DNA of 59,974 nucleotides, counting the filler, from Hausera hauseri (Eukaryota), in the NCBI GenBank assembly GCA_046269625.1. It is 12 parts of 12 records of this genome, joined end to end, with 100 filler letters (N's around TTAATTAATTAA, not from the genome) between each part and the next. Parts side by side here need not be neighbours in the genome. Positions count along the whole stretch, not along the records: positions 11,207 to 15,411 come from JBJURY010702549.1; 11 more parts are not named here. One strand, given 5' to 3'. Made by a program: the position numbers and the translations under genes. This document shows positions 11,207 through 15,411 of the stretch, piece by piece (positions within the stretch are counted from its first letter, which is position 1; every line of letters starts with the position of its first letter). Below the pieces are notes generated by a model. The model worked only from the letters and a program-made list of their open reading frames with translations, searched no databases and was not told the origin of the DNA.

Positions 11207-11283
11207 TGCCGTCTACTTGTTTTGTTGGGGTGTCATCAACTTTTTCTGGGGGTAAGTTGATTCTCCAAAAGCGCAAGTTTTCA
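11207..11283 (+). repeat. 77-bp terminal direct repeat, copy 1 (identical to 15335-15411)
   Basis: tgccgtctacttg...gcgcaagttttca is both the first 77 nt and the last 77 nt of the contig. Confidence 0.97.
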
Positions 11284-11404
11284 ATTTGTTTACGAATCGC
11301 CTTAATTCCGATAAGAGACGTTACCAAAATCCGGTCCTCCATATCTGCTGGAATCTCAGGGAGCAGATAACTAACAGTTGGTGTCAGATCAAACACACAT
11401 CTTG

Positions 11405-13140
11405 CTACCTACGTCGACCAGGTGCAGCCGGAACTTCTGAGACGTTACAACGACAATTAAATGGGGGTGAGTCGGATTGTTGTTATTCGGGAGCTCGGTG
11501 GCACTTTGTTCCCGAAATTTGTTTTTATTTCTGTTTTTAATCAATTCACAAACATTCTTGTATTTTGTTATATGACTCAACCAATTACTCACAGTCATAA
11601 TCACACAATGGAAATCGCGAAAAATGTCGTTTCCGTTAGTCTTGAATTGGTTAAATTACGGGTTGAAATGAAATTTTCCATCACCAATTTCTTTACACAG
11701 AATTTTCTACAACTAAAACTATTACTTAACACAAAACCAGTACATGTTAAATCACTGCCGTTTGATTTATACAGTTATACCTCTGTTAATCCATTTAATA
11801 ATATGTTGCAACTCTCCATTGTGTCCCTGGCCGAATTGAATTTAGATGAACAACTCCAAATAGACCTGATCTGCCAAGCACATGGAATCAAATCTATCAA
11901 TGCAAATACACTTGGATCATTTGATCAGACATTTTGTTATTTCGGCGAGAAACATATCATAAAGGATGTCAATTACAAAGACCTGCAGTCAGTGTCGATT
12001 CGGGGTATTGCAAAGAATGCCCATAGAGCCATAGTGTATTCAGAAGAAATAAAACATGCATTGGAGCTTGTAGATTTTAGTATTCTCAAGGAATCCAATT
12101 TTCTGGCATTTAACAATCCACGAAACATACAACTCATGAAGCCTAATGCACTTCCTGTCGTTGATATGGTGACGTTGTCTTATCACATCACTGGAATAAT
12201 AAGCATTTAAAAATCTCAAAAAATCTAAGCACAACAGCGATGTATGTGATTTTGCCATGTCCGCCTTTTCAGACCGGTGGCACATCTAGTGTCGGGTACT
12301 ATATGCATATTGCTTAATGCGTTGGTCCAGGCCAACATCTTATACTGTCGAATGTGCTACAGGATTGCATTCGCTAACGGCAGAGATTGCCGCAAAGCCA
12401 ACACCTCTATTCTGTTACACTTTAGTTCGAAGGTTTTATATAATACAGACCTTAGTTGGTAGCGCTGCGGTACAAAAATTCATGCAGTCGACATCTCATC
12501 AATTCATTCCCATTCAACATTGGCTTTATTGTCATGTTCTTGAAATCCTCCACAACTCGAACATAAAAATTTTGCATAAGACAGCAGCGGACTGTAGTTC
12601 GGATAGCCAACACTGTGATACAATGGCTGTGTTCTCAAGTAAATCTCGACAGAAAATGTCAAAGCTAGACCACAATCGGCCATACACATTTGAAAAACTC
12701 CTACATTTTGGAAATCGATGCTGGACCAAAAAAACTTCTTTTCGTGACTGATACGGGTAACATCAAAAAATCGTACCTCAATCGACAGTTTCTACTTTGT
12801 ACTCAAGACACACAAAAAACGAAATCAGAATTCGCTGTTAAGACTGGTACAACTATAAATCTAGAGAGTGGCATCGAAGCCTATCAAGATCTTATTTGCC
12901 AAAAAATTAAACGTATTTGTAACAAAATTATTCCCAAAAAACTCAATGGTATCGCTAATACTTTAGACACCGTAAAAACTCGAACTCACATGTATATGTT
13001 TTGGGCTCCCAACCGAAAACCCTTTTAGAATTCCGGAACTCTTGACACCAAAGGAAGTTGTCAAGCGACTGTACTGATCCTAACAAAATCTTATTCATCA
13101 TCACAAGATCCTCCAGAAAAGGTCATTTCCGTTTGCACAT
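11405..13140 (+). pseudogene. UBA1: Ubiquitin-activating enzyme E1 (UBA1-like) pseudogene, N-terminal half
   Basis: Colinear matches to UBA1 motifs: MEIAKNVV; NANTLGSFDQTFCYFG (ADTRGLFGQLFCDFG); FIPIQHWLY; VTDTGNIKKSYLNRQFL (VTDMDTIEKSNLNRQFL); [26 protein letters not shown] ([18 protein letters not shown]). Contains frameshifts, stops and deletions. UBA6 is not fully excluded. Confidence 0.88.
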
Positions 13141-13176
13141 CAAATTGAACGTCCCCTACTTTGGGTTAGGGGTCTA

Positions 13177-14780
13177 TGTCAGGGTCTAATTATACACCCG
13201 TCACGTTATATTCCCGCTGTTTGTCCCATGGCCGTGGGTCGCGCGGCGCGCAGTGCGGGCATAACGCGTCGCGTCTCTGGCTCTAGCCAGCCCATTTTTT
13301 CCATTTTCATTTTTAAATACGACACATATTTACACACGTACCACAAATCATGATACCTTAGGAAAAGAGCTATATACTTCAATCTTACATCCACCGACAT
13401 GTCTGGCTTTGCCTTGTTTTTCAATGACTTTATCATCCGTCCACATGATTGTCCGTGTAGCTTGCTTTTTCATTCCTTTTCATCCATTTGTGTCACGCTC
13501 CAGCCTAAACTCTATGGTGGTTCTGACTCAAATTTTGATACGATAAAAAATCGCCTAACATAACCTTCGTGTCGCTAACTCCTTCCTCCTTTTCACACTT
13601 TCAGTGCATCGATTTTTTCCTTGATAGTCAGAATTCCAGAACATGGCTATATTTCCACGCCAAGTGGCTAGCCTCACACAAAATCACCGATTCATTCTAG
13701 AAAGCCAATTGTTTACTTATTCATCTGCCGCCCAACATAAAATCTTTCCTCACTAATCTATCTGATATTTTCAATCAATCCGACTCCTACAAATCTCTAT
13801 TGGACGCCGTAACTACATCAACGGAGCCTTCGCTAGACTCAATAATTCAAAACTACTTCAACAAAAATGCTCTTGGCCAGCAAAAACATTTAGAATTTCT
13901 TCGAACCTCACTCTCACAACTAAATTCACTAGGCGTGAACCAACAAAATTTTAACTTATCTTCTCAGACGTTATTTTTTATCACCTTTGCCAATTCAAAT
14001 CCGCGCATTCCTCACTGTAGTGAGGATTCTACGTCGTTATACAAACCGGCGCAACTTGCGAGCAAAAGTTATGAAATTTTTCACAACAATAATGTACATA
14101 CAACTATTTCAGCTTTACAAGCAACGCAATCACCAACAATAGTTGCACTTCTACAGTCAACAAACTCATCAAACAACGCAAACAATATAGTCAATGAAAT
14201 TCAAAATTTTCAAGCCGAAAATGCGGCCTTACATCAGGCTATTTCAGCTATATCTAGCAGACTCGCCACCTTGTCCTTTCCTCGTCGTGATCAATTTAGC
14301 GCAAATCGAAGCAGACAGTCGTCTGTAAACTCCGGGCGTGCCTAGTCACCTTCCCGACGGATGGTGTGCTATTATCACACCAAATTCAATCGAAATGCTA
14401 AAAAATACTGTATAGGCTGTAAATTTTATACACAGAATTTCCAATCACGCGATGTAGTCTGCATCTATCACAGTAAGTTCAAAGGCAATGCAAAACGCTG
14501 CTTATCTGGGTGTATATTTTGTACCCAAAACACTCCAACTTCTTTATCTACTCAAAAAACGCCTAAAGCCGCCAGAAACTACGGAAAATTCTGGAAATGG
14601 CCATCTTTCATCACTTAACAGCCGTACTAATGCTGTTCTCCTATTAGGCGCTACACTCACATCTTCTGCACACCATACTAAATTCTTGATTGATTCGAGT
14701 GCAGCCGTCTCATTACTACATTCATCTTTTCGTTCTTTAAAAATTCTTTTAACCTCTGCTAGGCTATTTTCTGCCATTCA
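13177..14780 (+). mobile_element. Gypsy family A fragment: leader, gag and start of protease
   Basis: EPSLDSIIQNYFNKNALG, double Cys/His motif CYYHTKF..CIGC / CIYHSKF..CLSGC, and FLIDSSAAVSLL. Homologous to 6469-7900. Confidence 0.88.
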
Positions 14781-15334
14781 CTGCCACCAAAGTGAAAGTA
14801 AAAGTAGATAAAAATTTTTTTTGTGTAGTTCTGTCTTTTGGAATTTAACCTATCTCATTTTTGTGAACTAATTGTTAAAAGATTTTCGCGTTCACATATC
14901 AGAGGAATTTTCAGAATTATATTTTCATTGAGACAGTTGAGCAACCTACAGTATAACGGAAAAGATTGTTGTTTCAACATTCCTTTGAAGATACAATCGA
15001 ATCATTAAAATGTTTCAAGTCAGGAAATGATTTAATCATTATTATGTTTCTAAAAAGCCTGATCTACCATTATTGTCCTCGGCTCCAAAGAGGTCGACTC
15101 GATTAATTCTTGATCGACTATTCAATGTTGAAGGAGATAAAGGAAAAGTTAGTGACCCAATCTTTTGTGGGATTCCTATTAAAGCCAATATTGACGTGAT
15201 TTGTTTTGGTGGTGACATGCAGATCAGATTTGATGACAGAAAATTGAATTATGGTTCTTTATTTGTTTGCTTCTCAATAAATCCGATGTCAACCAGTGGA
15301 ATTTTGTATATAACTACAGTAAAATCCCCCCGTG

Positions 15335-15411
15335 TGCCGTCTACTTGTTTTGTTGGGGTGTCATCAACTTTTTCTGGGGGTAAGTTGATTCTCCAAAAGC
15401 GCAAGTTTTCA
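15335..15411 (+). repeat. 77-bp terminal direct repeat, copy 2
   Basis: Exact match to 11207-11283. Confidence 0.97.

Follow-up and report, generated by a model that had tools for sequence, protein, structure and literature searches.

Contig C702549 of the Hausera hauseri genome assembly begins and ends on the same sequence, and this raises the question of whether it represents a circle excised from the genome or a chromosomal sequence that forms a loop in the assembly graph. The entire contig makes up positions 11207-15411 of the window, by which we mean the whole stretch of 59,974 nucleotides that was analysed, composed of 12 stretches joined end to end. Self-comparison of C702549 reveals a perfect repeat of exactly 77 nt, with copies at 11207-11283 and 15335-15411 and a spacing of 4128 bp, as had been reported in the sequence-only reading; also borne out is its remark that no other stretch closes in this way, with a terminal overlap in one of the 12 stretches and none of 5 nt or more in the other 11. 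Among 131 loci compared C702549 is likewise the only one with terminal repeats, and many of these loci are cut or overlapping, so that the count gives no genome-wide rate. Repeats of another kind are present elsewhere in the window: a degenerate tandem array with a 34-35-bp unit at 34154-36150, upstream of exons ascribed to CEP290 in the sequence-only reading, and three tandem copies of 66 bp at 21223-21436, where another stretch ends. A k-mer length of 77 is usual for SPAdes, and the source assembly is very fragmented, with 869 Mb in 909,086 contigs. In contigs that form a loop, de Bruijn assemblers place the same k-mer at the beginning and at the end (PMC6543705), and the overlap was correctly taken as the mark of a loop in such a graph. 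The explanation that we consider probable is that the loop corresponds to a chromosomal, internally deleted Gypsy element whose long terminal repeats (LTRs) exchanged sequence, either by unequal crossover or by conversion.

The composition of the unit is explained by a linear paralogue. Contig C519902 contains the whole unit in collinear form, from window position 14783, across the contig ends, as far as 14776, with 86.6% identity over 4205 columns, and is a full Gypsy relic with the order LTR-PBS-gag-pro-RT-RH-IN-PPT-LTR. Its domains occur in Gypsy order (RVT_1, RT_RNaseH, Integrase_H2C2, and rve in Pfam), its LTR is located at 745-1775, and a purine tract precedes the second LTR, which begins at 8630 (87.6% identity over 226 bp) and is cut by the contig end. 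The purine tract (PPT) is present in both C519902 and C468301, the copies agree in where the LTR starts (TG) and where it ends (AACA), giving the LTR a CA end, and a 5-bp target-site duplication pair is found at another copy, C264812/C763206. The earlier assignment of C702549 to Gypsy is confirmed through this collinear paralogue and, judged by its sequence, C702549 is a defective copy of a Ty3/Gypsy LTR retrotransposon.

Read in order, the unit consists of an LTR end, a primer site for tRNA-Leu, a UBA1 piece, gag, the start of the protease, a microhomology join, and a truncated LTR (Table 1). It has no RT, integrase, or PPT, it lacks the first 300 bp of the LTR, and it contains LTR positions ~302-1031 only. 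The primer-site match begins 2 nt past the LTR end, and ARAGORN called a tRNA in one of the five loci that have the pattern used for tRNA-Leu(CAG). The UBA1 piece matches a solved UBA1 structure with an E value of 1.4e-12 and ThiF with an E value of 2.5e-10, which confirms the earlier assignment to UBA1. The contents had been viewed as a mosaic, and the UBA1 piece and the Gypsy leader, gag, and protease are indeed there, but they are parts of one element, and the pieces left unassigned are its LTR and primer site.

Table 1. Features of C702549 in window coordinates, and related subfamilies.
Feature	Position	Strand	Remarks
Terminal 77-mer, copy 1	11207..11283	+	Inside LTR; merge point common to C2656 end
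LTR 3' end	11207..11376	+	Closes ...AACA; sister LTR copies stop at same base, then unrelated flanks
Primer-binding site	11379..11388	+	10 nt complementary to host tRNA-Leu(CAG) 3' end (with CCA)
Captured UBA1 piece	11608..13139	+	Decayed, intron-free; host residues 51-600, three frames; in leader, element's sense
Leader	13219..13642	+	Common to sister subfamilies with other upstream cargo
Gag, decayed, several frames	13643..14618	+	Putative start; paralogue DUF7041 weak, E 0.006, below cut-off
Protease region, first part	14560..14776	+	Collinearity with C519902 and by-eye reading; no Pfam hit
True junction	14767..14786	+	GCCA microhomology protease/LTR and 10-bp duplication
Truncated LTR	14783..15411	+	~Positions 302-938 of 1031-bp LTR; 90-92% to closest LTR copies including C2656
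Terminal 77-mer, copy 2	15335..15411	+	Assembler overlap
Sister subfamilies with other leaders	L007, L009, L014; L016, L020, L022; L025, L027, L028		Upstream of match to window 13219

The ends of C702549 are placed in the middle of the LTR, which in the paralogues is unbroken at this point, and the novel junction of the contig is that at 14776/14783 rather than the contig ends. A minus-strand frame (PTKQVDG/TRGDFT) had been noted to read over the end junction, and it is real, but its continuity is trivial; frames read across the ends because these fall inside a continuous LTR, and a plus-strand frame crosses too. The minus-strand frame was rejected as a gene, as none of its three pieces matches Pfam and there are 5-15 stops in the nine copies covering at least 430 bp. 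The plus-strand frame (window 15031-15411 then 11209-11367; L032:677-1201, minus strand) is stop-poor and open for 98-175 residues in nine of 11 close copies. It was also rejected as coding, with no codon bias (28/33/39 by position) and with 32 silent and 68 replacing changes; it has no Pfam match and no useful PDB match, and its strong matches within its own genome are LTR copies in every case. This frame is possibly an old captured host piece.

The nature of the loop is constrained by a second contig, C2656, which contains an LTR start together with ~545 bp of flank. C2656 ends on the identical 77-mer, with a different preceding base (A in C2656, G in the unit tail), and the next longest exact match to the terminal 77-mer among the 131 loci compared is 53 bp. 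The terminal k-mer is therefore the merge point of two entering sequences and no arbitrary break in an isolated cycle; an isolated circle has no sequence entering or leaving it, and here C2656 enters. To compare the two paths we scored rare bases, defined as those present in at most 20% of the other copies in a comparison of 18 LTR-bearing contigs. The unit tail has 20 rare bases of which C2656 has just one, at an indel-ambiguous site, whereas all three rare bases of the 77-mer (11264, 11276, and 11280) are present after both entering sequences (3/3 versus 1/20, Fisher p 0.002); the 57 bp of 11207-11263 have no rare base. As the two LTR sequences leading into the 77-mer are ~9% apart, they could not each have gained three rare bases independently, and it follows that one path is recombinant, having switched within 11207-11263, and that one LTR is a hybrid. 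This hybrid LTR and the same graph could come from unequal crossover, from conversion, from a circle coexisting with a chromosomal copy, or from a library chimera. The flank of C2656 (L033:933-1382) contains a ~450-bp high-copy element with inverted ends, for which a first-pass search gave 3930 candidates; it stops 6 bp before the LTR start, and the prediction of an empty site from the flank consequently gave no result.

Searches for a sequence leaving the loop were negative. No exit contig was present among the candidates scored for the LTR end (30/30), the LTR tail (29/29), or the leader (26/26), nor for the gag-protease part among the best 40 of 499 candidates, and in an exact search the 32-mer directly after the 77-mer has a single occurrence in the assembly. 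The LTR end followed by the 5-bp target duplication expected for C2656 was not found, nor was any 3' flank for C2656, and neither this duplication nor an exit is seen among the six of 13 loose ends listed for sequencing run X1. A DNA search found no second continuation of C2656 corresponding to a solo LTR, and no reciprocal excision scar was recovered with one exact gapped pattern, a scar that decay could hide. The smallest contigs seen are ~500 bp, and a short exit contig may for this reason have been filtered out. The missing exit counts against the chromosomal reading, as does the C2656 LTR, which is no closer to the unit tail (91.3%) than other copies are (up to 92.4% over a similar length), so that C2656 is no more than a candidate for a part of the same element; any rival that keeps C2656 attached has to assume a missing exit as well.

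The failure to find an exit counts in favour of a free circle of the one-LTR type, present beside unexcised chromosomal copies and formed when the 5' LTR crossed over with the truncated 3' LTR on the same chromatid. Such a circle would have the same hybrid LTR and the same graph, and yeast Ty circles do form by LTR-LTR recombination (PMC4751563), with a sequence layout that a one-LTR circle would share with C702549. We nonetheless consider this improbable, as the recombining LTRs are ~9% different, a circle that does not replicate could survive assembly only if it roughly equalled the chromosome in abundance, the solo-LTR remainder expected as a second continuation of C2656 was not found, and the depth in run X1 is not raised, although this last point is weak. 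The yeast circles described in the part of that study drawn on here are mainly full-length Ty1, whereas this is a decayed and truncated element. It is highly improbable that crossing-over within the 57-bp identical LTR patch cut C702549 out of a long-dead Gypsy element as a real and abundant circle, one member of a class.

A single deleted element could also have been looped artificially, either by a library chimera, with template switching in the 57-bp identical stretch during PCR or whole-genome amplification, or by an effect of the assembler. This is unlikely, since each of the two entering paths is preserved in a long contig and no library type is recorded, although the direct repeat of 57 bp at a distance of ~4 kb is a ready substrate and the assembly is highly fragmented. 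Among the X1 contigs listed none bridges the tail to the head or overruns the ends, but such a missing bridge proves nothing, as short-k contigs break in sequence shared by paralogues.

At the inner junction the protease meets LTR position ~302 at 14776/14783, and both parents have GCCA there, a microhomology of 4 bp. The ten bases preceding the join are duplicated and the two copies differ at two bases, which suggests an old join, although the sample is small. Microhomology end-joining with templated insertion is a DNA repair mechanism, and the junction looks like a product of it. It is unique in the assembly; all 24 candidates were scored, and each of the others matches on a single side, the highest identities being 94% and 89%. 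An identical 260-bp contig of run X1 bridges the junction, and X1 may be the source data and hence not independent. Joining the protease break in C519902 to LTR position 302 predicts a unit of 4137 bp, compared with the 4128 bp observed.

The end-joining marks at 14776/14783 would also be expected if this junction had itself closed a circle or tandem duplication within one element, joining the protease to its own 5' LTR, with C2656 as another copy that took part in a separate exchange; the failure of C2656 to resemble the tail more closely than other copies do is compatible with this. We find it very unlikely, in that no identical parent for either side of the junction is present in the 24 of 24 candidates (94% and 89% at best), no reciprocal scar was found for the one exact gapped pattern, the differences between the 10-bp copies suggest, again from a small sample, an old and inherited join, and an extra event is required to account for C2656. 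Circles arising through reverse transcription or autointegration either contain a complete LTR together with the PPT or are joined at an LTR end. The features of 1-LTR, 2-LTR, and autointegration circles are absent here, as there is neither a PPT nor the first 300 bp of the LTR, and the junction is at LTR position ~302 and not at an LTR end. Reverse transcription is therefore an unlikely source of the unit on sequence grounds, and because the deleted form has no PPT and could not undergo normal reverse transcription, the deletion was presumably a chromosomal event.

Contig depths in run X1 do little to separate the readings. The identical pieces of the unit have depths of 7.3, 8.0, 8.9, and 12.2 (n = 4 listed), and paralogue pieces range from 2.9 to 13.5 (n = 11 listed, leaving out a 72-bp piece at 22.7), giving medians of 8.5 and 6.6, a ratio of 1.3 (p 0.28); these values derive from 8 of 494 and 8 of 28 pieces listed, and the depth of a contig cannot be read as a copy number. 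What they argue against, at best, is strong rolling-circle amplification or a long array; one copy and two copies look alike. A fixed two-copy tandem predicts a doubling of depth that is not seen in X1, which counts against the tandem reading, with the same reservation on depth and with X1 being perhaps the source data.

The sequence-only reading had proposed an excised circle, as in programmed DNA elimination, and four observations speak against it. The point at which C2656, with its flank, joins the loop is precisely the terminal k-mer; an ordinary linear LTR element contains the unit in permuted form; C2656 continues solely with the bases of the loop itself and no excision scar was found; and the X1 depth lies within the range of the chromosomal paralogues, which is weak evidence. 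A developmentally programmed circle like those of dicyemids is extremely unlikely, even though a terminal k-mer repeat is the criterion by which circular contigs were recognized in Dicyema (PMC6543705), where circular contigs, like C702549, have one 77-mer at both their start and their finish. In the part of that report considered here, long dicyemid circles have a median of 702 bp and are mostly unique, with conserved domains that are only mitochondrial. C702549 differs in size, uniqueness, content, and graph isolation, being a 4128-bp member of a repeat family with UBA1 and Gypsy content and an entering contig. The main chromosomal form expected after programmed excision, a solo LTR or a reciprocal join, was found in neither version, the latter for one exact scar pattern.

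The sequence of events that would best fit a chromosomal exchange begins with an old Gypsy element that, after insertion, probably lost ~3.7 kb, namely RT, RNase H, integrase, the PPT, and the initial 300 bp of its 3' LTR. Microhomology end-joining may have repaired this deletion, leaving a templated duplication of 10 bp. C2656 would be the 5' end of the same element. A later chromosomal exchange between the two LTRs, at a point predicted to lie within the 57-bp stretch 11207-11263, would then have generated the hybrid, most likely through unequal crossover to give a head-to-tail tandem with the hybrid as its middle LTR, and the exit into the 3' flank would have been lost from the low-depth, fragmented assembly. 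The collapsed tandem had rightly been listed as a rival to the circle, and we tentatively propose this head-to-tail variant of the exchange. Also possible, if doubtful, is a gene-conversion variant in which a patch of the 3' LTR was replaced in a single copy, with the same graph.

In a tandem LTR-retrotransposon array, two or more internal regions lie between shared LTRs, and a single target-site duplication flanks the whole. Both variants have documented precedents, in tandem LTR-retrotransposon structures (PMC11899658) and in conversion between LTRs (PMC5751070). In the tandem structures, as in our proposal, LTRs alternate with internal regions; gypsy elements are liable to form them, and unequal recombination between the two LTRs of an element is one proposed route to their formation (PMC11899658). 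They differ, as far as the part of that account used here goes, in that our unit is internally deleted and its LTR copies are ~9% diverged, and only the entry and the hybrid LTR are seen. In intra-element gene conversion one LTR adopts the bases of the other while the interior is kept, and this would yield shared rare bases; the portion of the source drawn on here documents it in plants, and in C702549 the end of a conversion tract is not visible (PMC5751070).

The UBA1 cargo has a recognizable host counterpart, a 1004-residue frame in C287280 (L095) that is intact-looking and intron-free and matches the cargo with an E value of 4e-59. The cargo corresponds to residues 51-600 of this frame in sense orientation, at a DNA identity of ~58%. 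The UBA1 piece adjoins gag on at least six contigs, one with just 63 bp of gag at the contig end, and was therefore captured before the family spread. Since introns are absent from the host frame as well, their absence from the cargo is no proof of an RNA route. LTR-mediated retroposition in animals, in the part of the study considered here, similarly places intron-free host coding sequence in sense orientation inside an LTR element, and the present case is distinguished by a UBA1 piece that was propagated with the element into at least six contigs and has ~58% DNA identity (PMC5131818). By this analogy the acquisition of UBA1 would work like LTR-mediated capture.

Further intron-free, decayed UBA1 copies are found at L096, L100, L102, and L105. 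Another copy of the subfamily, C148633 (L006, 866-870), is without nearly all of the UBA1 piece (window ~11660-13136 is missing), which reflects either a later deletion or an earlier state. At L097, L098, L099, and L106 the UBA1 pieces continue into a stretch that presumably resembles a protein-disulfide-isomerase domain; the L098 frame has no Pfam hit, and in L099 and L106 a distant gag with 57% DNA identity comes after the UBA1/protein-disulfide-isomerase-like stretch.

At least three sister subfamilies have the leader end (from ~13219), gag, and protease in common, with different sequences upstream. The leaders of L025 and L028 contain Pfam matches to GNAT_acetyltr_2, in frames that we take to be NAT10-like, the L022 leader has a 488-residue open frame with no assignment, and L007 and L009 likewise have unassigned frames. 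The leader thus looks like a swappable slot for cargo.

As read here C702549 is ordinary, and in a repeat-rich, low-depth assembly a terminal k-mer repeat calls for a check of entering contigs and linear paralogues before a circle is declared. If the circle reading were nevertheless true, it would offer a testable case of the somatic removal of dead elements, and if there were a class of abundant circles, dead retroelements would be excised regularly in the soma together with the host genes that they captured. The family to which the unit belongs is a Gypsy family with subfamilies that have different host-gene pieces between the primer site and gag, and it provides an example of gene capture.
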